A stretch of DNA of 64,000 bases from a virus. Its lineage: Duplodnaviria; Heunggongvirae; Uroviricota; Caudoviricetes. The position numbers and the translations under genes are program-made. Positions 30,097-43,477 of this stretch are shown here, piece by piece (the stretch's first letter is position 1; every line of letters begins with the position of its first letter). The stretch lies in IMG/VR virus record IMGVR_UViG_3300045988_142422. One strand, 5' to 3'. The notes under the pieces are model-generated. The model made no database searches, was not told the DNA's origin, and saw only the letters and a list, made by a program, of their open reading frames with translations.

Positions 30097-33000
30097 ATGT
30101 GGTACAGGGAAGGTACTATCACATTTACACAGGGTAGCAATACTCTGGTTGGGGCAGGGACAGCCTGGAACGTAACAGCTAATGGTGTGTTGCCGGGGAT
30201 GATCGTCATTGGCCCCGACAATAAGCTGTATGAGATCAAGCGCGTAACCAGTGATACGAACATTGTTCTCTCAGAACCTTATACCGGCGAAACTCAGTCT
30301 GAAGTTCCGTGCCGAATCATTACGACCTATGAAGGCGACTTAACACAGTTTAGCGCGCGCTTTACAGCACTAATGTCGCGTATGTCGGCTGATTCCAAGT
30401 CTATGCGCAGTTGGTTGACTGCTCTGGATGAGGTGACAATCGAGCGTGAAGACGGTACAGAAGTAACCGTTAAGCCGCTAATGCAGATCGTCAACGAGCA
30501 CAACGAAAACGTTGAGTGGTATAAAAATAACACTGACGCGATTGATGCTGCTGGCGACAAAGCTCGTGAGGCGGCGGCCAGTGCTGCCGCAGCAGCAGAA
30601 AGCGCCAATACCGCTGGAGAAAAAGCCTCTCAAGCGTCTCAAAGTGTATCCGCTGCGGCATCCTCACAAAGTGCCGCAAGTGCGAGTGCAACTGCTGCGA
30701 AAAAATCTGAAACGAATGCCGCAGCGTCACAACAATCAGCAGCCACTTCTGCATCCACCGCGACCACGAAAGCGTCAGAAGCTGCCACCTCAGCCCGGGA
30801 TGCGGCGGCCTCAAAAGAGGCAGCGAAATCATCAGAAACGAACGCATCCTTGAGCGCCAGTAGCGCAGCTTCCTCGGCAACGGCGGCAGGAAATTCCGCG
30901 AAGGCGGCAAAAACGTCCGAGACGAACGCCAGGTCTTCTGAGACGGCAGCGGGACAGAGCGCCTCAGCTGCGGCAGGCTCAAAAACAGCGGCTGCGTCGT
31001 CTGCCAGTGCCGCGTCAACAAGTGCCGGGCAGGCCTCAGCCAGTGCCACCGCCGCCGGAAAATCGGCAGAAAGTGCCGCATCGTCTGCTTCAACAGCCAC
31101 AACGAAGGCTGGCGAAGCCACTGAACAGGCCAGCGCAGCAGCGAGGTCTGCTTCCGCAGCGAAGACATCCGAAACGAACGCGAAAGCGTCGGAAACCAGC
31201 GCAGAATCCTCAAAAACGGCTGCCGCATCGTCCGCCAGTTCGGCGGCGTCATCGGCATCATCTGCGTCTGCTTCAAAAGATGAGGCGACCAGACAGGCGT
31301 CAGCAGCGAAGGGCAGTGCCACGACGGCATCCACGAAAGCAACAGAGGCGGCAGGCAGTGCGACGGCAGCATCTCAGAGCAAAACTGCTGCTGAATCCGC
31401 TGCGACCCGTGCGGAAGCTGCTGCTGATCGTGCTGAAGAGATTGCCGGTGCAGTTGCGATGGAAGACGCAAGCCTTACAACTAAAGGTGTTGTGAAACTT
31501 AGCAGTGCTGTCGACAGCACCAGTGAATCGCTGGCCGCAACGCCAAAAGCAGTTAAAGCAGCCAATGACAATGCGAATAGCAGGGTGCCATCTAACCGAA
31601 AAGTTAACGGTAAAGCACTGACTGCGGATATCACATTAACGCCGAAAGATATTGGTACTTTAAATTCAGTAACGATGTCTTTCTCTGGCGGGGCAGGGTG
31701 GTTCAAACTGGCTACGGTTACCATGCCACAAGCGAGTTCCATCGTTTACATCGCATTGATTGGTGGCGCTGGTTACAACGTCGGCTCCCCACATCAGGCA
31801 GGTATTTCAGAACTGGTTCTACGAGCAGGCAATGGAAACCCCAAAGGGATTACAGGTGCTTTGTGGAAGCGTACAGCTGTCGGATTAACGAATTTCGCCT
31901 GGATCAACACATCCGGCGATACATATGATATTTACGTTGAGATTGGCAATTATGCGACTCGTGTAAATATCCATTGGGATTGTACTGCAAATGCGACAGT
32001 TTCTATTTATACCTCGCCAACATATTCAGCGAGTAAGCCTTCCAGCGTTACCGATGGTGTTGTTTATACGATGTATAGCTCACATCAGAAACCTACACCA
32101 TCAGATATTGGAGCACTGCCAACAACCGGAGGAACAGTTTCAGGTCCGTTGTCTGTTACAGGTGGATTAACTGGTTCATTGAATGGTAATGCAAGTACAG
32201 CCACGAAATTGCAGACGGCAAGATCTATCGGTGGAGTTGTTTTCGACGGTTCTGCAAATATTAACCTTCCAGGTGTAAACACTACGGGTAATCAGAACAC
32301 CACTGGTAATGCTGCAACTGCTACAAAACTTCAGACGGCAAGAACTATCGGCGGCGTGAGCTTTGATGGTACTGCGAATATTAATTTGCCTGGTGTAAAC
32401 ACGGCAGGTAATCAGAATACAACGGGCAACGCGGCTACTGCTACGAAGTTGCAAACAGCGAGAAACATCAATGGTGTTAAGTTTGATGGCTCAGGCGATA
32501 TCAACATTAATACACTGGTATCTCGTGGCCGAGTTACGGCGTTAAGTGGCTCTACTCAGGGTACTGCTGGTATTCAAATGTATGAAGCATATAGCAATAA
32601 TTACCCAACATCATTCGGCAATGTTCTGCATATGAAAGGGGCGAGTGCTGCTGGTGAGGGCGAGTTGCTTATTGGCTGGAGCGGAACGGATGGTGCTCAT
32701 GCACCGGTTTATGTTCGTTCACGCCGTGATACTTCGACAGCGAATTGGTCTGGTTGGGCGCAGGTCTATACCACTGCTCATAAACCCACAGCGAAAGATG
32801 TTGGGGCTGCACAGACGTTTAGCGCGTCATACAGTACTGGGGCTGGCAACTGGACTACCGCTGAATTTATCGCATGGCTGAAGGAGCGTGGTGCTTTCGC
32901 CGTACCGTATTGGATGATGAAAGGCTCTTGGTCATATGCCGACAATAAAATTATCACTGATACAGGTGTCGGCAATATTTGTCTTGCTGGTGCGGTTATC

Positions 33001-34485
33001 GAGGTTTTAGGTCACGAAGGCGCAATGACCATCCGAGTTACTACGCCTACAACGACAACCGGAGGTGGTATTGCCAGTGCTCAGTTCACCTATATTAATC
33101 ACGGTAGCGCGTATGCCCCTGCCTGGCGCAGAGATTACAACACGACTCTCAAACCAACTGCGGCTGATGTTGGTGCGTTGCCGAGCGGTGGCGGCACACT
33201 TTCCGGCGCACTCACATTATCTATGGTTGCGCCGAGTGTTCAATTACGAGGGCAAGGTACTGATACCAGGCAGTACATCATGGCTTACAGAACCGATGGT
33301 GCTACATCATGGTATGTAGGTAAGGCTAACAACGGCTCTGATAGCGCGATGCTCTGGAACTATACGGGGGCAAACGGAGTCGAGTTGGCTGCCGATGGCA
33401 ATGTGCGCATTAATGCGAAGGGTAAGCAGTTTACGTTCGCAAACAACGGCAATTTGGGGCTTGTCGCTTCGTTGGATCAAAGTTCTGTTCCACAGGGCAC
33501 TTACCATCAAGTTGCTATGAACTCTGGAACCAGAGGTGCTAAATCCTATCTTCGTAAGTTCAGGGGTGGGAACGCAGATACCGTCTGGCATGAAACCGTT
33601 CAAGACGGAAATTACCGACTTGCTACTGGTGACACTGATTCTCAGGGTGAAATGTACCTTTCGACTTCGGGTTGGGTTCGTTTCCGTGGTGAAGTTGTTT
33701 CAGAATCGGCCAATGGTTTGCGAGCCGCATTCGGTAACTTCGGTTTCTTTATCCGAAATGATGGAACGAACACTTATTTCCTTTTGACAGCTTCAGGTGA
33801 CAAGTACGGTTCTTGGAATGGTTTGCGGCCTCTGACTATCAACAATGTCAGTGGCGCAGTGTCAATGAGCAACGGACTAACTGTTGCTGGTGGACTTAAT
33901 GTAACGAGCGGAAACCTGAAAATCTCGACGTCCAGCACATCGTGGATCGACATGAGAGCAGGCGTAGCCCTTTCGAACTCTTCAGCTGTTTCGACGTCAT
34001 CCGCTTCGGCGATAGTCCGTCAAGAACACGCCGATCGCCATTTCATTCTTGGCGGTTTGGGTAACTCGCAGTTCGGGATTTACATGATTAACAAATCTCG
34101 AACTGCGAACGGCACTGACGCTGCCGCTTATCTCCAGAACGACGGCACTTGGGTTTGCGCAGGCAACGGTAGTTTTAATGACGTTTACATCCGTTCCGAC
34201 CGCCGTAGTAAGCGCAATATTCGCAAAATTGAGCGGGCGCTCGACAAGCTGGAGCAGATCGAAGGTGTTCTCTACGAGATTCAGGTCTGTGGCCGTTATG
34301 AGCAGTCTGGTGGCCTCATCGCTCAGGATGTCCAGAATGTTCAGCCTGAACTGGTAACGGTCGACCATAACGATCAGTCAGGAGAGCCTCGTCTGCGTCT
34401 TAACTACAACGGCGTTATCGGCATGTTGGTTGAGGCTGTCAAAGAGCTGCGCGAGGAAGTGCGCGAACTGAAGGCAAAAATGTAA
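30097..34485 (+). CDS. Tail fiber protein with C-terminal intramolecular chaperone (peptidase S74-like) domain
   Basis: AAGGAG before ATG. Ala/Ser-rich low-complexity region (about 30580-31450); three ATKLQTAR.IGGV.FDG.ANINLPGV fiber-type repeats (about 32170-32510); C-terminal YIRSDRRSKRNIRKIERALDKL motif typical of autoproteolytic chaperone domains. Confidence 0.8.
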   Translation: MWYREGTITFTQGSNTLVGAGTAWNVTANGVLPGMIVIGPDNKLYEIKRVTSDTNIVLSEPYTGETQSEVPCRIITTYEGDLTQFSARFTALMSRMSADSKSMRSWLTALDEVTIEREDGTEVTVKPLMQIVNEHNENVEWYKNNTDAIDAAGDKAREAAASAAAAAESANTAGEKASQASQSVSAAASSQSAASASATAAKKSETNAAASQQSAATSASTATTKASEAATSARDAAASKEAAKSSETNASLSASSAASSATAAGNSAKAAKTSETNARSSETAAGQSASAAAGSKTAAASSASAASTSAGQASASATAAGKSAESAASSASTATTKAGEATEQASAAARSASAAKTSETNAKASETSAESSKTAAASSASSAASSASSASASKDEATRQASAAKGSATTASTKATEAAGSATAASQSKTAAESAATRAEAAADRAEEIAGAVAMEDASLTTKGVVKLSSAVDSTSESLAATPKAVKAANDNANSRVPSNRKVNGKALTADITLTPKDIGTLNSVTMSFSGGAGWFKLATVTMPQASSIVYIALIGGAGYNVGSPHQAGISELVLRAGNGNPKGITGALWKRTAVGLTNFAWINTSGDTYDIYVEIGNYATRVNIHWDCTANATVSIYTSPTYSASKPSSVTDGVVYTMYSSHQKPTPSDIGALPTTGGTVSGPLSVTGGLTGSLNGNASTATKLQTARSIGGVVFDGSANINLPGVNTTGNQNTTGNAATATKLQTARTIGGVSFDGTANINLPGVNTAGNQNTTGNAATATKLQTARNINGVKFDGSGDININTLVSRGRVTALSGSTQGTAGIQMYEAYSNNYPTSFGNVLHMKGASAAGEGELLIGWSGTDGAHAPVYVRSRRDTSTANWSGWAQVYTTAHKPTAKDVGAAQTFSASYSTGAGNWTTAEFIAWLKERGAFAVPYWMMKGSWSYADNKIITDTGVGNICLAGAVIEVLGHEGAMTIRVTTPTTTTGGGIASAQFTYINHGSAYAPAWRRDYNTTLKPTAADVGALPSGGGTLSGALTLSMVAPSVQLRGQGTDTRQYIMAYRTDGATSWYVGKANNGSDSAMLWNYTGANGVELAADGNVRINAKGKQFTFANNGNLGLVASLDQSSVPQGTYHQVAMNSGTRGAKSYLRKFRGGNADTVWHETVQDGNYRLATGDTDSQGEMYLSTSGWVRFRGEVVSESANGLRAAFGNFGFFIRNDGTNTYFLLTASGDKYGSWNGLRPLTINNVSGAVSMSNGLTVAGGLNVTSGNLKISTSSTSWIDMRAGVALSNSSAVSTSSASAIVRQEHADRHFILGGLGNSQFGIYMINKSRTANGTDAAAYLQNDGTWVCAGNGSFNDVYIRSDRRSKRNIRKIERALDKLEQIEGVLYEIQVCGRYEQSGGLIAQDVQNVQPELVTVDHNDQSGEPRLRLNYNGVIGMLVEAVKELREEVRELKAKM

Positions 34486-34551
34486 TCAAGGTGAATGGTG
34501 AGGGGACACCCTCACCAATTCAGGATATTCACATCAAAAAGGAGATTAGAT

Positions 34552-35334
34552 GTGCCAATTGTCGGTGTTCCCGGTTGGATTGGGTCTTCGGCTGTCAGTG
34601 TGACAGGCCAGAGATGGATGAGTGCGGCTCGAACGGCGGTGCAACTGCCAGCGGCTGGTTCAATGTCTCAAATGGCCGGGCGATCTAAAGAAGTTCAGTA
34701 CAGCATCGGTGCGAATCATAACTACAACAAAGACACACTGATCAACTATTTAAAATCCCAGGGGGCGACGCCAGTCGTTGTTACCATTACAGGGGATCTG
34801 GTGTCGTCCAGTAGCGGCGTGCCATGTTTAGATTTCCCGAGTTCACTTACCAACTCTTATATCAGCCTTGTAATCAACGCAGGTGTGACTGTCTATGGAC
34901 GCGGTGGCAATGGTGGTAGTAACGCTGCCGGTGCTGCTGGTGGTAACGCAATTAATAATGGCATCGGTACACGCTTGCGTATTACGAATAATGGTGCAAT
35001 CGCTGGAGGTGGTGGCGGCGGTGGCGGCGGTAACAGGGGTAAACTAATATTTGGTGGTGGCGGTGGTCGCCCATTCGGTGCTGGTGGGTCTTCCTCTCAT
35101 ATGAGTTCCGGTGCAACTGCTGGTACTATTTCCGCTCCTGGTAAAGGATCTGTTGGTGAGGGGTCTCTTAGTGCATATACAGGCGGTTCGGGTGGTAATG
35201 TCGGTGCTGCTGGAGGAAGATGTAATACTCAAGGTAACGGTACAGAATATAACGGCGGAGCAGCTGGTAAAGCTGTTACTGGTAATGCTCCAACTTGGAC
35301 TAAAGTTGGGGCAATTTACGGCGCTCATGTGTAA
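34552..35334 (+). CDS. Glycine-rich protein, possibly a fiber-associated or second receptor-binding protein
   Basis: AAAGGAG 8 nt before GTG 34552; long poly-Gly tracts (GGGGGGGGGNRG..GGGGGR). ORF track lists the frame from 34495. Confidence 0.4.
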   Translation: MPIVGVPGWIGSSAVSVTGQRWMSAARTAVQLPAAGSMSQMAGRSKEVQYSIGANHNYNKDTLINYLKSQGATPVVVTITGDLVSSSSGVPCLDFPSSLTNSYISLVINAGVTVYGRGGNGGSNAAGAAGGNAINNGIGTRLRITNNGAIAGGGGGGGGGNRGKLIFGGGGGRPFGAGGSSSHMSSGATAGTISAPGKGSVGEGSLSAYTGGSGGNVGAAGGRCNTQGNGTEYNGGAAGKAVTGNAPTWTKVGAIYGAHV

Positions 35335-36439: not shown

Positions 36440-36691
36440 ATGCTAGGCAGCCTGATGACAAAGCTAAAAGTTGCTTTGATTACGCTGGCTGCCGTTCTTT
36501 TCGTTCTTGTCGGCGCTTACACGATGGGCGGGAATGCGGCGCGACGAGCAATGGAAGAGAAGGCAAAACAGGAAGACAGAAAACGACTTCAAAACACAGT
36601 GAAAGTGGTGAATGAGACGAGCAGTAAAATACGTCAGAAAGATGCTTCTGCCGTTCATCGTGAGTTGTATGATAAGTGGGTGCGTCATTAA
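36440..36691 (+). CDS. Inner-membrane spanin (Rz-like)
   Basis: N-terminal transmembrane helix followed by a charged coiled-coil region. Confidence 0.6.
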   Translation: MLGSLMTKLKVALITLAAVLFVLVGAYTMGGNAARRAMEEKAKQEDRKRLQNTVKVVNETSSKIRQKDASAVHRELYDKWVRH

Positions 36692-36827
36692 ACCACAAAC
36701 AGCCAGCGTGTTGTTCTGCGATGGGGCTGAGCCTATCTATATCAGCAATAATGATGTAATGACTGAAGAAACCGAACGCCAAATCCTTTTTCACAATACG
36801 ATGGGAGAGAGGGTTTGTGGTTGGTGA
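36642..36827 (+). CDS. Outer-membrane lipoprotein spanin (Rz1-like), overlapping Rz in another frame
   Basis: MLLPFIVSCMISGC: signal peptide plus lipobox. Starts inside the Rz-like gene and extends beyond it. Confidence 0.6.
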   Translation: MLLPFIVSCMISGCVIKPQTASVLFCDGAEPIYISNNDVMTEETERQILFHNTMGERVCGW

Positions 36828-36859
36828 TGTCGAAGTTCCCCTCAAATGAGGGGAACACA

Positions 36860-37381
36860 TTATTCTTCGAACAATTTTTCGATAGATTTTGTAGGATAGA
36901 ACAAAGAACGCTCGTTGTTACCAACCAGCTGGATAAAGCCTAAACTTTTATAAAACGCCTTGGCTTTGTCATTTAACGCCTCAACGAAAAGTCCATGAAT
37001 GCCTACAGCAAGAGATGCATTGTACACAACGCGCATTGCATGTGTTACAAGCATTGAGCCAAATCCTTGACCTTGAAGGGACTTGTCCAAAGCCAGCCTA
37101 CCCAAAGTAACACTTGGAACATTCCGATAAGGAACCTTCTTTTGTTTGCTTCTTGAAGGTAAGGACTCCTTTTCAAAACAACTACCTGACAAAGTGTAAT
37201 ATCCTAACACTTTTGGCCTTTCTTCTTGAGTGCAAAGCACATAAGCACGAAGAATTTTTCCCTCATGCTGCCTTTTTAAGTGGTTGGCTAAAAAGGCGTT
37301 TAGTGACTCTTCGCCGCAATCAAAACCGTTTAGATCATAATCTTTCTCTCCAGAGAAAATCTCTATCGTTGTATTGCTCAC
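36860..37381 (-). CDS. GNAT-family acetyltransferase toxin (TacT/KacT-like) of a type II toxin-antitoxin pair
   Basis: GNAT motif QGQGFGSML; about 170 aa; immediately downstream of a DUF1778-type antitoxin gene. Confidence 0.8.
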   Translation of the reverse strand: MSNTTIEIFSGEKDYDLNGFDCGEESLNAFLANHLKRQHEGKILRAYVLCTQEERPKVLGYYTLSGSCFEKESLPSRSKQKKVPYRNVPSVTLGRLALDKSLQGQGFGSMLVTHAMRVVYNASLAVGIHGLFVEALNDKAKAFYKSLGFIQLVGNNERSLFYPTKSIEKLFEE

Positions 37382-37388
37382 GAGTAAA

Positions 37389-37658
37389 CTACTCCATGCT
37401 TTTCAGACGATCAGCAGCTCGTTTCAGCTTGTCGTTCGGTGCCGGAGGATTGCTTATAGCGTCCATAACCAGATTCCAGGATTCTTCATTCAGAACTAGT
37501 CTACGGTGTTGCTCTATAACTTTCACGGCACGTTCAGATGCACTGCTAACCATAAACTGAGTAATGCTCTGGTTAGACATTGCGGCAGCTTCCTCGATGA
37601 TGCTTTTATCGTCATCGGTTAATCTCAAATCGATGCGCTGCTTTTTTAGTGCTGACAT
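37389..37658 (-). CDS. DUF1778-type RHH antitoxin (TacA/KacA-like)
   Basis: RIDLRLTDDDKSIIEEAA ... PPAPNDKLKRAADRL pattern; AGGAGG RBS before ATG 37658. ORF track lists a longer 37697 start. Confidence 0.8.
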   Translation of the reverse strand: MSALKKQRIDLRLTDDDKSIIEEAAAMSNQSITQFMVSSASERAVKVIEQHRRLVLNEESWNLVMDAISNPPAPNDKLKRAADRLKSME

Positions 37659-37976
37659 GTATTCCTCCTGATGGCCGTGATGTAGGAAGGCCATCAATCT
37701 CCTCTGTTCAAACTGAGTTTTCGACTCAAAAATTACTTTAAAAGGCTATAGCCCATTACGTGTGCATTATCAAATTGTGTACGGCATATCACCGTACTTG
37801 TAATATAGAGGTCATTGTTACTTTTTTCAACAGACAAATACAAGCTATGATTGCCAATTGTTAATCACAACCTACCATTTAACCTTTACACCGCAGCCGT
37901 AGGCATTTAGGCTATATCACATATAAGAAAACAAGTTGTTTCAGACGATAATTATATACGCAAAGGGAACTCTCCA

Positions 37977-38645
37977 ATGACCAAGATCTTTGTGGTTGGC
38001 GGCACAAAGGGCGGGCCTGGCAAATCCACCGTTGCCCAGCAAATTGCCGTTTGCCTGAAAGTCAAAAAGAAGAAGAAGGTTTATATTACCGATATAGATA
38101 TTCAGCGCACGACAACGAGCTGGTGTGAAGACCGTCGACAGAACGAAGACCTTGAGCTGATTCCTTTTGCATACGTTCAGGATGACATCATTAAGCACCT
38201 AAAATCGCTTCAGGGTAGAGCTGAGTTTGTAGTGGTAGATGCTGGTGGCTTCGACTCCGAAATTCAGCGACAAGCGATGCTGATGGCTGACGTTATCATT
38301 ATCCCGCTGCGTCCTAAGCGTCGTGATTTGAAATCTTTACGTGACATCGATCCTATTATCGACAATGTTCGCAATGTAAACGATAAAGTGAAGGTCCGCG
38401 CGGTCATGAACCAGTGCCCGGCTTTGCCATCACAAGTGTCTCGCATTCTGGCGGCTAAAGAGATTGTTGAGACGTTTGGAATCGAGTCTGCGCCAGTCAA
38501 TCTGTATAACCGCAACGTCTATGATGATGCGGAAGAGTCTGGTCGTTCTATCTTTGAAATGACCGGTAGCGAGCGCGACAAAAAGGCGGAAGCCGAGTTT
38601 GAAGAATTTGTAGATTATCTGTTGAGTCTGGAGGAAGAAGAATAA
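37977..38645 (+). CDS. parA: ParA-family partition ATPase
   Basis: Deviant Walker A GGTKGGPGKST; 222 aa; followed by a small basic DNA-binding partner. Confidence 0.85.
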   Translation: MTKIFVVGGTKGGPGKSTVAQQIAVCLKVKKKKKVYITDIDIQRTTTSWCEDRRQNEDLELIPFAYVQDDIIKHLKSLQGRAEFVVVDAGGFDSEIQRQAMLMADVIIIPLRPKRRDLKSLRDIDPIIDNVRNVNDKVKVRAVMNQCPALPSQVSRILAAKEIVETFGIESAPVNLYNRNVYDDAEESGRSIFEMTGSERDKKAEAEFEEFVDYLLSLEEEE

Positions 38646-39004
38646 TGTCCATGAAAATGGGTGACCTAGCAAAGCGCAAAGAGCCTGATGCACCGGCTAA
38701 GAACACAACTCCTTTGCGCCAACCAGTCAGACCACAGGGACGCCCGACTCGTGGCAAAGAGAAAATTAAAAGCCGCACAATGTCACTGGAGGACGAATAC
38801 TTCGAACTGCTGGAGATGATGAAGTTCATCCCTCGCTTCGAGAAGTTCACTCGTTCTGACGTGATTCGAGCTGCTATTTTCCATCTTGCGGAGAAGACAC
38901 CGCAGGAAATCGAGGACATCGTGAAACTTAACGAGGCGATCACAGCTGCCGACGTAACGATGCGTACCGATGAAATCAAACGCGAGTTGATGAAGAAGAG
39001 TTAA
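38645..39004 (+). CDS. Small centromere-binding partition protein (ParG/RHH-like, putative)
   Basis: 119 aa, basic N-terminus, start overlaps the parA stop. Confidence 0.5.
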   Translation: MSMKMGDLAKRKEPDAPAKNTTPLRQPVRPQGRPTRGKEKIKSRTMSLEDEYFELLEMMKFIPRFEKFTRSDVIRAAIFHLAEKTPQEIEDIVKLNEAITAADVTMRTDEIKRELMKKS

Positions 39005-39009
39005 GAATA

Positions 39010-39035
39010 AGGCGCCAGATGGCGCCTATATTTTA
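39010..39035. terminator. Bidirectional intrinsic terminator between convergent genes
   Basis: AGGCGCC-AGAT-GGCGCCT hairpin followed by ATATTTT. Confidence 0.55.
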
Positions 39036-39042
39036 AAGTGGT

Positions 39043-39720
39043 TTATTTATTGCCAGACGGTAATACATAGTAGCGGATTGTAGTACCCTCCATTTCAATA
39101 ACCTTGAATGCAAGGTTTTTATATTCGACTTTTGTTTTCGCATCGGAAAGAGGCACTGAAAACTCGGTCTTAGTTTCATCTAAACTTGGGTAGCTTTCGG
39201 AATAAATAAATTTAAGGTCGTCGCCACTTTTGCCATTATAAGAAATAGACTGAACAATCTTTTTCTCTACATGGCAGGGGACATTTTGTGCGAATTTTAT
39301 GGATATTTCGGAGGCGTCGAACGTCGTAGTGTTGGGAGGAGATATAGTGTTTTTGACCTTGTCATACTTGACGTTATCAGTGTGGCTCACTACCTGCCCT
39401 GTAATGGCCTTCAGGCCAACAGCTTTTGAGTCTTCAAAGTTCCGGTAGACCCCACCACCAACGTGGCAGTAGTTGCCCGCTTTAATCTCAGACATCGAAC
39501 CAGAAGCGTTACCAAGAGTGACCATGTCGGTTTTTAACGTGGACACAAACGTGTTATAAACGACAAGGTCACCCATTTTCGCCTTTGACTCTACGTTAGA
39601 GGAAGGCAATATTTCTTGGGTTAGGATTGGTTTTACAGTGGCATTTTGTTGTGGGTTACTTTGTTGCGCGCAACCGGCTAATAATAAAACTAAAAGTGCC
39701 GCTGACTTATTCGCCTTCAT
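39043..39720 (-). CDS. Lipoprotein (putative superinfection-exclusion-type moron)
   Basis: MKANKSAALLVLLLAGC: signal peptide plus lipobox; gene is isolated on the minus strand between plus-strand modules and looks AT-richer than its neighbours. Confidence 0.6.
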   Translation of the reverse strand: MKANKSAALLVLLLAGCAQQSNPQQNATVKPILTQEILPSSNVESKAKMGDLVVYNTFVSTLKTDMVTLGNASGSMSEIKAGNYCHVGGGVYRNFEDSKAVGLKAITGQVVSHTDNVKYDKVKNTISPPNTTTFDASEISIKFAQNVPCHVEKKIVQSISYNGKSGDDLKFIYSESYPSLDETKTEFSVPLSDAKTKVEYKNLAFKVIEMEGTTIRYYVLPSGNK

Positions 39721-39920
39721 TCTTAATTCCCTTTCTACGTGATTGGTACATTGTTTATTTCTGGACGTTTCTTAAGTTGTAGACGCTATTCTGTGTCTGA
39801 GTAATCTACAATAATTTGTTACACTTAACAATGTTGCAACCGTCTGGCGTGCAGCTGTTTTGAAGTAGATCTTAAGGTTGCATACCATGAGACTAAAAAC
39901 TAGGTTGGGTTGGTTTTTGA

Positions 39921-39978
39921 CCTGCTTCCGTATATAAATACTAAGTTACTTATTATTATTTATACGGAAGCAGGTCTT
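39921..39978. repeat. 58-nt inverted-repeat element, copy B
   Basis: CCTGCTTCCGTATA ... TATACGGAAGCAGG perfect 14-bp arms around a CTAAGTTACTTATTA core; homologous to 7555-7611. Confidence 0.7.
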
Positions 39979-40083: not shown

Positions 40084-40833
40084 GTGAGCCACATGAGCCA
40101 AATCTTTTTCGATACCATCGACAACTACCAGTACGACTTCATGACAGAGTGGAATACCGCTGTTATGGACAAGTGGGTCGCTGAAAACATTGGTTTGTCG
40201 CGCTGTAAAGATGAGGCTGAACTCTTCGAGACGAAGTGGTTTGATTACCGCGACATGCATCCTCTGATGGCCACCTGTCTATTTACGGAGACATACAAAC
40301 GTCAGTACTCAAATATCATGCTGACGCACGGTCGCGAACACTTTGAAACAGCTCCGTTCACCACCGGGTTAAAACGCCTGCCTTATCAGGAGTTGTCGAC
40401 TGCCAATAAAACGTCGCTATGGAAAGCACGCCAGTTTGCTGACCGCTATTGCTGCTCATACGACTACTTTATCTCCACCGTTCTTTCCGCAGCTGCACGA
40501 CGGCTGTGGGACAAGCTGCCGCGCCCACAGCATTTATGGCAGCCAGAGCTGATTGAGATATTCGAAGAGAAATTAGCCAGACGCGCAACAACCCGTCTGG
40601 ATGACTCTCTCGTTAGCTTTAAGCATATGGGAGACATGCAGTTCAACCCGATTCAGGAAAGCTATTTTGAGTGGATTCTGGAGCGTTTACGCACCATCCC
40701 CCGCAGCAAGCGCATACGCGCAATTTTCTCCGCTATCTGGCTAATGGAAATCGTTCCAGAGCGCCTTATTTCCGCCCACTTTCCAGAAGAACTGGAAGAA
40801 GCACGGCGGTTTATTGATCCCCTATCTAATTAA
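40084..40833 (+). CDS. Hypothetical protein, first gene of the replication block
   Basis: ATG with upstream purine-rich stretch. No motif I recognise. Confidence 0.45.
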   Translation: MSHMSQIFFDTIDNYQYDFMTEWNTAVMDKWVAENIGLSRCKDEAELFETKWFDYRDMHPLMATCLFTETYKRQYSNIMLTHGREHFETAPFTTGLKRLPYQELSTANKTSLWKARQFADRYCCSYDYFISTVLSAAARRLWDKLPRPQHLWQPELIEIFEEKLARRATTRLDDSLVSFKHMGDMQFNPIQESYFEWILERLRTIPRSKRIRAIFSAIWLMEIVPERLISAHFPEELEEARRFIDPLSN

Positions 40834-40876: not shown

Positions 40877-42217
40877 ATGACCGAACTTTGCCATACAGGA
40901 CGCGGGCTGTCCGAAGAGTTTGATGAAGATTTTCAGAACAGATTGACGGCCTATTTTTGTCGTGATCACGAGTTTCTTACTCGTGCTGGAGATCTGGTTG
41001 TACCTAGCCAATTTGCCAATGCGGCCAATGCCATATTGGTTAATATGGTTTCGGGCTATTACCGTATGTACAAGAGCGCGCCCTCTTCATCTGCAATTCT
41101 GGATATGCTTAAGCGTGCGAAACGCGATAAGACTATCCGTGAGGAACTATTCGCCGATGTTGTTGCTGCGTTTAAGCGCATCCTTGCAGAAAAATTGTCC
41201 GATACCTCGTACATGGTTGACCAGGTATCAACCTTCGCAAAAAGCGTAGCGTTTGATGATGCTCTGATTAAGGCTGCTGAACTGAAAGAGAAGGGCGACT
41301 TTCAGGGGGCGATGGCAATCATGGCCAAGGTTCAGCAGATAGGCTCGAACGAAGCAACCGGAATCTATGACTACTACACCTCAGCAAGTGAGCGACTGAA
41401 AGCGCGTGAATATGAGGCCTCAGAGGAGTATGTGCCAAACAGCATTACAACTGGACTCCCTCTGCTCGATAGGTTGCTGTACCAAAAAGGCTGGGCGAAG
41501 CGTGAAATGGTGCTCTTCATGGGGTTCGCTAAATCCGGTAAATCGACCGCAATGGGTGAGTTTTCCATAAACGCAACGCTTGCTGGCTACAATGTTCTGT
41601 ATCTCTCGCTGGAGGTTCACACCACCATTTTATCCGACCGTTTTGATGCAAGATTGTCGGAGACGGAAATGTCCAAGTTGGTGGAACGGCGCGATGAAGT
41701 TCATCGTAAGTTGGCAGAGTTGGGAGCCTCTAAGGGGATTGGTAGTTTGTGGGTTGTTGAGCGTCCGTCAGGAAGTATGTCACCGGCAGATCTGGACCGT
41801 ATGCTTAACAGCATGAAAGCCAACGGCATGGTGCCTGACATGGTTGTTGTCGACTACGCAGATTTGATGCGTGCCAGTTATGACCTTCGTGATGATCGCG
41901 CCAACATACGTAGTATCTATACCGACTTACGTGCTCTTTATGACAAACACAACGTTGCTGGTATCACAGCATCGCAAACAAACCGTGAAGGTGGCGCGTC
42001 AGAAGTTGCCACAATGATGCACGCTGCCGACAACATCGAAAAAGTACGTATTGCTGACCTGGTAATAACGATCAACAAAACAGAAGAAGAAGAAGCGAAA
42101 GGAGAGGCTCGTCTCTACTTTGCTGGTTCACGTAACCAGCAGGGAGGGATCAGCATTCGCGTTAAACAAAACCTCGAACAAATGCGCTTCATTGAGCGAA
42201 TCTTAGACGTTACCTAA
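40877..42217 (+). CDS. DnaB-like replicative helicase
   Basis: RecA-type core with Walker A GFAKSGKST and Walker B-like VVVDYADL; AAAGGA before ATG. Confidence 0.7.
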   Translation: MTELCHTGRGLSEEFDEDFQNRLTAYFCRDHEFLTRAGDLVVPSQFANAANAILVNMVSGYYRMYKSAPSSSAILDMLKRAKRDKTIREELFADVVAAFKRILAEKLSDTSYMVDQVSTFAKSVAFDDALIKAAELKEKGDFQGAMAIMAKVQQIGSNEATGIYDYYTSASERLKAREYEASEEYVPNSITTGLPLLDRLLYQKGWAKREMVLFMGFAKSGKSTAMGEFSINATLAGYNVLYLSLEVHTTILSDRFDARLSETEMSKLVERRDEVHRKLAELGASKGIGSLWVVERPSGSMSPADLDRMLNSMKANGMVPDMVVVDYADLMRASYDLRDDRANIRSIYTDLRALYDKHNVAGITASQTNREGGASEVATMMHAADNIEKVRIADLVITINKTEEEEAKGEARLYFAGSRNQQGGISIRVKQNLEQMRFIERILDVT

Positions 42218-42364: not shown

Positions 42365-43477
42365 GTGAGCGAGCTGAAAGAGCTAATTACCGAATTAGAT
42401 TTTGAACAATGGTTGGACACTGAAGGTATCGTTTATCGACGTGGAGGCGTGAGTGCTCGCGGTCGTGAAGTGAATATCAAGGAGTGTCCGGTATGCGGCA
42501 GCTCCAACTGGAAGGTATATTTCAATCTGACCAGTGGCGTCGGTAAATGCTTCGCTGGTGATCATCCCGAAGAGATTCAGTTCAATAAGCTGGTCTTCCT
42601 CAAGCACTACAGCGGCAAATCACGACGACAGTTCGAGGAATATGTGCAGAACGCCCTTCTTTCCCAGGGGTGGGCACCAAAGAAAGAAGAGATAGTGCTT
42701 GCAAGCACAGTCGAGTTAGAGGGACCACTTGCACTCCCTCGTCATTACGAACTTCCTATAGATGGCCGTCTTCCAGACTATCTGGTTGAACGAAACATAT
42801 CGCCTGAAATGGCAAAGTATTTTGACCTACGATACTGCGTCGAAGGTAAGCACGCCTATGTAGATCCGTATACAGATCAGGTTAAAGGACAGATATTCGA
42901 TATGCGAATACTGATACCGGTTTACGATCTGGATGGGGTAATGAAGACATTTCAGGGACGAGACATTACCGGTACAGCAGAACGCCGCTACCTCTTTCCT
43001 ATGCAGCTTCCAGCTTCAGGTAAGTTTCTCTACAACGGCCATAATGCAGTCGGCAAACAGACTGTAGTTGTCTGTGAGGGGGCGTTCGATGTTATGGGGG
43101 TTAAACGAGCTATTTTTGACGAAGAAACATTACGTGATTACGTGGAACCAATAGGAACGTTCGGGATGCATCTATCTGGTAACACCACTCAGGATGCAGA
43201 AGATCAGTTAGGCGCGTTCCTGACGCTCAAGGCGCGTGGGTTACGTAATGTGATCATGATGTGGGATAGTGAAAAGCAAGCTATACGTAATACGATGGCC
43301 GCAGCCAGGCGACTGACCAGTATTGGTCTTAATGTCAAAGTGGCGTGTTTGGGCGAGGAAGGACTCGACCCGGGCGATGCAACGCCAGAGCAAATCATCA
43401 AAGCCTATTATCGGGCAAAACCGTATACCAAGCAGTTGGAGTTACAAAGCAAGGTTTTGGGCATTAAGGCTCTATGA
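42365..43477 (+). CDS. DNA primase (zinc-finger plus TOPRIM)
   Basis: CPVCGSS...GKCF zinc-binding motif and TOPRIM-like VVVCEGAFDVMG; GTG start. Confidence 0.65.
   Translation: MSELKELITELDFEQWLDTEGIVYRRGGVSARGREVNIKECPVCGSSNWKVYFNLTSGVGKCFAGDHPEEIQFNKLVFLKHYSGKSRRQFEEYVQNALLSQGWAPKKEEIVLASTVELEGPLALPRHYELPIDGRLPDYLVERNISPEMAKYFDLRYCVEGKHAYVDPYTDQVKGQIFDMRILIPVYDLDGVMKTFQGRDITGTAERRYLFPMQLPASGKFLYNGHNAVGKQTVVVCEGAFDVMGVKRAIFDEETLRDYVEPIGTFGMHLSGNTTQDAEDQLGAFLTLKARGLRNVIMMWDSEKQAIRNTMAAARRLTSIGLNVKVACLGEEGLDPGDATPEQIIKAYYRAKPYTKQLELQSKVLGIKAL

Follow-up and report, generated by a model that had tools for sequence, protein, structure and literature searches.

What does a phage-plasmid gain from a solitary lipoprotein gene that lies between its partition and replication modules and is read in the opposite direction? 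The question is raised by a 64,000-nucleotide stretch of viral DNA (IMG/VR record IMGVR_UViG_3300045988_142422, Caudoviricetes; referred to here as the window), which we assign from its sequence to the SSU5-like phage-plasmids. Its closest relatives are the Escherichia phages CMS-2020a, PhiR41_1, and Cyrano, followed by Klebsiella phages and SSU5. The initial annotation had described a 225-amino-acid (aa) open reading frame (ORF) at 39043..39720, minus strand, as an isolated lipoprotein moron, and had proposed that its product blocks the phage's own receptor. Tentatively, we favor envelope-level exclusion of other (heterotypic) phages as the most likely role, because the slot that the gene occupies mostly carries anti-phage genes and because the family recurs in the defense hotspots of unrelated elements.

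The ORF at 39043-39720 is a real lipoprotein gene, as first described. It begins with ATG, and the N terminus of its product, MKANKSAALLVLLLAGC, consists of a positively charged n-region and a hydrophobic core, followed by a lipobox, L-A-G-C, with Cys17; signal peptide and lipobox together span residues 1 to 17 (39670..39720, minus strand; Cys17 codon at 39670-39672). Gly16 and Cys17 were invariant in an alignment of 10 orthologues, and in a wider alignment of 12 sequences Cys17 was again invariant and Gly16 nearly so. The charged n-region, h-region, early lipobox, and conserved Cys are those of a signal peptidase II substrate. When the gene was compared pairwise with orthologues carried on plasmids of E. 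coli, Citrobacter, and Klebsiella, the ratio of nonsynonymous to synonymous substitution rates (dN/dS) was 0.11 to 0.16, and the ORF is therefore a functional coding gene under purifying selection. The AlphaFold2 model (mean predicted local distance difference test score [pLDDT] of 82) is built of strands throughout; residues 1 to 26 are disordered (pLDDT of <50), residues 18 to 29 form a tether rich in Q, N, and P, and the predicted all-β mature domain begins at about residue 30. Cys85 and Cys149, which were invariant in both alignments, fit a periplasmic disulfide, which they probably form. In E. coli, the residue at +2 governs sorting of lipoproteins to the outer membrane by the Lol system; since the window protein carries Ala at +2 after Cys17, we predict that Lol probably sorts it to the outer membrane.

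The gene is also a movable one. Homology of SSU5, PhiR41_1, and Cyrano to the window ends at 38997, 39008, and 39050, respectively, and resumes at 39920, 39921, and 39915. From these shared breakpoints it follows that the gene and its 195-bp upstream region form a cassette, lodged in a slot bounded by a terminator and a hairpin. The lipoprotein gene is missing from SSU5, Cyrano, PhiR41_1, and CMS-2020a, where other genes replace it between flanks that are otherwise 82 to 98% identical. Because it is present or replaced among relatives with conserved flanks, and comes with a terminator of its own and a conserved region upstream, its reading as a genuine moron, a self-contained single-gene cassette extending from about 39005/39051 to 39914, is well supported, and in this respect the initial annotation was borne out. 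No SSU5-like record of the phage collection had the lipoprotein gene. It was found on 13 PLSDB plasmids from E. coli, Shigella, Citrobacter, and Klebsiella grimontii, at 89 to 99.9% identity and with constant position and orientation in all 13. Among 5,426 complete E. coli genomes, the backbone flank (represented by the 249-aa gene on the right of the slot) was present on plasmids of 248, and the cassette was present in 41, on plasmids only and never on the chromosome. A single clonal plasmid of 106,011 bp accounts for 29 of these 41 carriers; its near-clonal copies (NZ_OZ3692xx-OZ3694xx) come from strains Esc1-29 and CNR20191027. In the clonal plasmids the cassette (39043-39914) is 100% identical to that of the window, with an adjacent replication flank of only 98.4% identity, which suggests recent transfer of the cassette between backbones.

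Both edges of the slot are marked by structured DNA. On the left, a hairpin resembling a bidirectional intrinsic terminator (AGGCGCC-AGAT-GGCGCCT, 39010..39027, both strands), identified by pattern scan and folding z score, bears T-rich tails on both strands and scores as a terminator both ways, with folding energies of −16.6 and −14.6 kcal/mol (z of −4.7 and −5.5 versus shuffled sequence). It lies 15 nucleotides (nt) past the lipoprotein stop codon and 5 nt past that of the convergent 119-aa gene. We predict that this hairpin is a terminator common to the lipoprotein gene and the 119-aa parG-like partition-partner gene, and it marks the left edge of the slot; the bidirectional terminator noted at the outset is thus retained. 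Three E. coli plasmids (CT01, AH02, and AH04) have an insertion sequence of the IS3 family between the parG-like gene and the lipoprotein gene (locus L075, 8803-9965, NZ_CP081792.1), which parts the lipoprotein gene from the shared terminator region.

The right edge is a 16-bp perfect inverted repeat in the conserved backbone (39919..39976), with arms at 39919-39934 and 39961-39976 that are 100% complementary and a 26-nt AT-rich spacer (ΔG of about −30 kcal/mol; z of −6.7 and −9.0). This is the element termed inverted-repeat element B in the initial annotation. The repeat itself is real, but it sits 199 bp upstream of the lipoprotein start codon and does not directly adjoin the gene. TTTTAT follows it on the plus strand only, and the repeat is probably a plus-strand terminator or insulator between the slot and the replication module; it may alternatively serve as an origin or operator. 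It is kept in all relatives, and the K. grimontii copy shows a compensatory C>T/G>A double change.

If the slot is a place where genes are exchanged, its other occupants may indicate what kind of gene belongs there. We retrieved 80 IMG/VR relatives through the right-flank protein and counted the 74 that had both flanks. The slot (39005-39918) held 13 cargo clusters in 15 architectures and was empty in 5 loci. PD-T4-3 was the cargo of 25 loci; two clusters of PDC-S31-type genes accounted for 13 and 5 loci, PDC-S49 for 6, and PD-T7-5 for 4. A 374-aa protein with no assigned function was present in 16 loci, and a pair of uncharacterized membrane proteins (SSU5_035/036-like) was present in 5 to 7. 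The lipoprotein was rare cargo, found in 1 locus. Among named relatives, PhiR41_1 carries PD-T4-3 (GIY-YIG) in the slot, Cyrano carries PDC-S31 (DUF2971), SSU5 carries two uncharacterized ORFs together with PDC-S31 (DUF2971), and plasmid AR_0104 carries a 568-aa P-loop NTPase (PDC-S49). The slot cargo consists mostly of known or candidate anti-phage genes, and the site is a bounded defense hotspot in SSU5-like phage-plasmids. The alternative or neighboring cargo matches PADLOC-DB v2 models, unlike the lipoprotein itself, and the 374-aa protein and the SSU5_035/036-like membrane pair are candidate defense genes. Cyrano's slot gene, a different gene from the lipoprotein, is transcribed at 6 times the local background during lysogeny of strain LF82 (PMC9928086).

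The family to which the protein belongs extends well beyond this slot. A profile search over 1.8 billion representatives (threshold E of 1e-3; clusters at 50% identity) gave 549 clusters at an E value of ≤1e-3 and only 9 at ≤1e-30. The most widely conserved part is the C-terminal ∼70 residues; the N-terminal part is variable. A strict lipobox, defined as [LVI][ASTVI][GAS]C within about the first 35 residues, was present in 92 of 138 full-length family representatives, most of the others having near-lipoboxes or ordinary signal peptides, and Asp at +2 was found in 0 of the 138. Named members are annotated as "hypothetical protein" or "lipoprotein" and come from Shewanella, Methylotuvimicrobium, Pseudoalteromonas, and marine metagenomes (Tara). 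A scan of species-representative genomes with one alignment found only 2 genomes. The window protein matched the PHROG 1353 profile (function unassigned; E of 8e-27), its sole PHROG match. Its Pfam-A scan (E up to 1) gave only a weak match to DUF6491 (E of 0.045) in the signal region, and 55 diverse members of the family, scanned against Pfam, yielded 0 matches; NCBIfam returned no family for the window protein, and PDB returned no sequence or fold match for the family. In the literature we found no characterization of STM2726, EcHS_A0921, phrog_1353, or the WP protein; STM2726 appears only in a microarray list.

Homologues at 38% identity occur in Fels-2 (STM2726), in RE2010, and in many Klebsiella P2-like prophages; STM2726 is 37.7% identical to the window lipoprotein over 93% of its length (E of 1e-33). 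At 55 P2-like loci from IMG/VR, the homologue, mostly ≥99% identical, directly follows DinI/TumB, and the DNA between it and the portal gene Q (0.4 to 3.6 kb) holds 38 protein clusters. This variable cargo includes AbiU, NsnA, bSEFIR, Shosta, AbiL, PDC-M03, PDC-M11, and HEC-05. The homologues thus sit within the P2 gpA-gpQ defense hotspot defined by Rousset et al. 2022 (PMC9122126). No lipoprotein is mentioned either in that paper (PMC9122126) or in a 2026 survey of P2/P4 hotspots. As a possibility only, the P2-like homologue might be a conserved left anchor for cargo exchange in this hotspot. A two-gene system with AbiU was rejected: AbiU comes after the homologue in Fels-2-type loci alone, and elsewhere its place is taken by 38 different cargo clusters.

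Further homologues lie on other kinds of element: one, in a prophage that encodes a serine recombinase, is ∼3 kb away from the gene for an OLD-type nuclease, one from Pseudoalteromonas closes an integrase-AlpA-VapE island (P4-like and satellite-like), and one is on a mobilizable MobA/TraD plasmid. On an Edwardsiella tarda plasmid (L012, 8001-9555) and in Edwardsiella anguillarum (L013, 6001-7581), an orthologue of 63 to 65% identity lies immediately upstream of PDC-S31/DUF2971, separated from that gene by a hairpin; two alternative occupants of the SSU5-like slot therefore adjoin there. A 71%-identical homologue (L083, 6562-9679) stands beside a Hin-like resolvase, a flagellin gene, an FljA-like repressor, and transposase remnants, in a region rich in insertion sequences near hin-fljB-like genes, and its context resembles a mobile flagellar phase-variation module. 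Fixed edges, mostly defense genes as alternatives, and occurrence on more than one type of element are all features of defense-hotspot cargo that the lipoprotein family displays. From these contexts it follows that the family travels between mobile elements as single genes, which time and again settle within or next to defense cargo.

Could the protein protect its own carrier from reinfection, as first proposed? By this account it would bind the outer-membrane receptor of the carrier's gp38-type adhesin, preventing reinfection of the lysogen and loss of progeny on debris. The idea has a natural basis in an outer-membrane-type lipoprotein on a temperate phage that encodes a T-even-type Gp38 adhesin, a receptor-recognizing protein (34495-35334; Pfam match to PF05268, E of 1.8e-70), next to its tail fiber gene (30097-34485). 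Gp38-type adhesins typically recognize outer-membrane proteins. Moreover, tblastn found no Cor-like gene in the window, while SSU5 has one, adjoining the SSU5 fiber gene, and experiments have shown small phage lipoproteins to exclude phages dependent on the same receptor (PMC11893012). In those mEpimmI coliphages, however, the exclusion lipoproteins are encoded in the structural gene cluster and their types follow the receptor used, OmpA or LamB (PMC11893012). The window gene behaves in neither way, and the suggestion that its position is typical of superinfection-exclusion lipoproteins does not stand: the adhesin gene is ∼3.7 kb distant, with lysis, toxin-antitoxin, and partition genes between.

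A mask for the carrier's own receptor would be expected to covary with the receptor-binding module. Plasmid p13P484A-3 has a lipoprotein 100% identical to that of the window, with no gp38 and no homologous fiber tip; CT01 (lipoprotein 99.6% identical) has a different fiber and a tail-fiber assembly protein; and the K. grimontii plasmid (88.9%) has another fiber. B-1109 (98.7%) has the same gp38 (100%), and AR_0104, with a fiber tip 99.75% and gp38 99.6% identical to those of the window, is without the lipoprotein. A similar adhesin region occurs on 76 plasmids, the lipoprotein gene on only a handful of these. The lipoprotein thus shows neither linkage nor covariation with the receptor-binding protein of its carrier; because the lipoprotein and gp38/fiber modules assort independently, a dedicated block of the carrier's own receptor is disfavored, though the protein may still have some effect on the cognate phage. 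The occurrence of homologues in P2-like phages, a satellite-like island, and plasmids points the same way, as does the lack of similarity to the SSU5 Cor-like protein (BLASTP E of 6.3). We conclude that masking of the carrier phage's own receptor is probably not what the lipoprotein does, and we consider homotypic exclusion of this kind quite improbable. The related plasmids have at least three different fiber/adhesin modules, so host-range modules are swapped too. The window gp38 is up to 87% identical in nucleotide sequence to Tequatrovirus gp38 genes, a T-even-type adhesin on an SSU5-like, siphovirus-like element.

Other accounts of an accessory lipoprotein need no phage receptor. Temperate-phage and plasmid morons often encode outer-membrane lipoproteins of a fitness type, and the protein could likewise serve host fitness or virulence without relation to phages, through serum or complement resistance, adhesion, or envelope stress, as in the cases of lambda Bor and TraT. 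It is carried by plasmids of enterobacteria isolated from humans and animals, and its mature size is nearer to that of TraT than to that of Cor or Llp. Neither the TraT nor the Bor family was detected, however, in the Pfam scan; members of the family come from marine and environmental bacteria (Shewanella, Pseudoalteromonas, and Methylotuvimicrobium), to which serum resistance is irrelevant, and the placement of the gene is consistent with defense hotspots. We regard such a function as unlikely. Mobile elements also often collect orphan immunity genes, and a periplasmic immunity protein or inhibitor directed against an exported antibacterial activity (a type VI secretion system [T6SS] or contact-dependent effector, a bacteriocin, or a lysozyme) would accord with a family that is exported, compact, and all-β throughout, its variable N-terminal part and conserved ∼70-aa C-terminal domain being suited to target-specific binding. 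A toxin, T6SS, Rhs, or bacteriocin neighbor was found in 0 of the 9 context types examined, and we give this account little chance; were the target a phage tail lysozyme, inhibition would itself be a form of exclusion. A component of the virion or of lysis, such as an outer-membrane spanin, might be expected of a phage-encoded lipoprotein with a lysis cassette 2 to 3 kb away. The element has its own Rz/Rz1 pair, however (36440-36691, with an embedded lipoprotein ORF at 36612-36827 that has an ISGC lipobox), and the gene is present in only 1 of the 74 IMG/VR loci and 41 of the 248 E. coli backbones (29 of them one clone) and also on nonphage plasmids. This pattern of presence and absence effectively rules out a spanin or structural role, to which we attach only a negligible probability.

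Exclusion of heterotypic phages at the envelope is the reading to which we return, and several observations count against it. The lipoprotein matched 0 families in PADLOC-DB v2 and resembles no characterized exclusion protein. A promoter scan of the minus strand at a threshold of 9/12 found no site for the gene. The same slots also house genes without assigned function, so that position is only a probabilistic guide, and phage morons have many roles besides defense. The P2-like homologue, near constant (≥99%) beside variable cargo, looks more like a lineage-conserved accessory gene than like exchangeable cargo. Position is what makes an anti-phage role plausible.

In the mechanism that we propose, a single-gene moron in a terminator-insulated slot between the partition and replication modules would yield a product made with a lipoprotein signal peptide, lipidated at Cys17, and carried by the Lol system to the outer membrane. 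An all-β domain of ∼195 residues, stabilized by a Cys85-Cys149 disulfide, would be held there on a short flexible tether and be exposed to the periplasm or at the surface. The domain might cover or modify a conserved component of the outer membrane, or it might hinder delivery of the phage genome across the periplasm. Our inferences are location in the outer membrane, the disulfide bond, expression during lysogeny, and an anti-phage function together with its target. A wider proposal, which we consider possible though doubtful, is that the protein is the founding member of a new family (∼550 clusters) of exported, mostly lipid-anchored, all-β proteins, borne by phage-plasmids, P2-like and other prophages, satellite-like islands, and plasmids, each a single-gene envelope barrier to phages that is independent of the carrier's receptor and directed, for example, at genome delivery or at an outer-membrane factor that many phages share.

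How does the gene compare with accessory lipoproteins already described? Cor (phi80, N15, T1, and HK022) and Llp of T5 are small outer-membrane lipoproteins that inactivate FhuA. They offer the obvious functional analogy for an envelope block, since the window protein, too, is a phage-encoded lipoprotein that is predicted to reach the outer membrane and is accessory to lytic growth. The window protein is nevertheless three times larger (∼209 mature residues, versus the 77-aa precursor of SSU5_025, which is annotated as Cor-like) and falls in a different PHROG; its gene is away from the tail fiber genes, unlinked to receptor-binding type, and represented on unrelated mobile elements. Lpp021 and Lpp010 of the mEpimmI coliphages are likewise prophage lipoproteins found by their lipobox, and were shown by expression to exclude phages (PMC11893012), but theirs are the genes of the structural cluster that track OmpA or LamB, whereas the window gene occupies a slot between partition and replication genes and varies independently of the adhesin. 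Like the window protein, for which an outer-membrane location is predicted, TraT of F-like plasmids and lambda Bor/Iss are single-gene outer-membrane lipoprotein cargo, and TraT has a similar size; the window protein has no Pfam match to either, and its family also occurs in bacteria that are not host associated. Bor is mentioned as a prophage moron in earlier work (PMC9928086).

As a site, the SSU5-like slot resembles the P2 gpA-gpQ hotspot (old and tin; PMC9122126) in its fixed edges, its many alternative defense genes, and its occasional empty sites. The lipoprotein differs from the cargo of that hotspot in not being a recognized defense gene, and in P2-like phages it is a constant neighbor of the variable cargo. 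Fels-2 STM2726 (PHROG 1353) is a true homologue, with the same length class, a lipobox, and the conserved C-terminal motif, although its carrier is a P2-like myovirus prophage and its genomic position is different. The window gene is, on these comparisons, an uncharacterized member of a familiar class, the accessory lipoproteins of temperate elements. To our knowledge, most cataloged defense systems are cytoplasmic, and envelope exclusion proteins are few, small, and receptor specific. A family of ∼21-kDa lipoproteins that recurs in the defense hotspots of several unrelated types of mobile element, yet escapes Pfam, PADLOC, and NCBIfam alike, is a well-defined candidate for the "unknown" fraction of hotspot genes, and the bounded SSU5-like slot is a place in which to seek new systems and can help to show what widespread enterobacterial phage-plasmids offer the bacteria that harbor them. 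Should the protein turn out to be a common fitness lipoprotein, the loss would be small.

The upstream region borne on the cassette (39721..39914, minus strand) was read directly from the sequence. It contains a good ribosome-binding site, AAGGGA, at 39733-39728, and a candidate sigma-70 promoter that matches 8 of 12 consensus positions (TTGTTA at 39831-39826, a 17-nt spacer, and TAGATT at 39808-39803); an alternative candidate (TTGCAA at 39839-39834, 17 nt, and AATTAT at 39816-39811) also matches 8 of 12. The 195-bp region is nearly invariant across five orthologous loci, with gene identities of 89 to 99%. The gene had been described as more AT-rich than its neighbors, and windowed computation showed that the difference exists but is small. 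The guanine-plus-cytosine (GC) content of the gene is 0.423, versus 0.468 for the window and 0.47 to 0.49 for neighboring genes, which places the gene at the 10th percentile among windows of its size and hence not among the outliers. At third codon positions the value is 0.45, versus 0.47 to 0.58 in the neighbors. No strong compositional anomaly was found.

The backbone on either side of the slot is ordered as follows. To the left, on the plus strand, lie parA (37977-38645) and the 119-aa gene for its parG-like partner (38645-39004); to the right lie the 249-aa first gene of the replication module (40084..40833, plus strand), a DnaB-like helicase gene downstream of it (40877-42217), and a primase gene (42365-43477). 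The lipoprotein gene had also been called the only minus-strand gene in this part of the window, which is correct for the partition-replication interval, where no other gene lies, but not beyond it, as a minus-strand pair encoding a GNAT (KacT/TacT-type) toxin and a DUF1778 antitoxin lies at 36860-37697, just upstream of parA. This pair occupies a second variable slot (36825-37870), between the Rz1 spanin gene and parA, which holds the GNAT/DUF1778 pair in the window, Cyrano, and the K. grimontii plasmid and two unrelated ORFs instead in SSU5, PhiR41_1, p13P484A-3, and a Citrobacter freundii plasmid.

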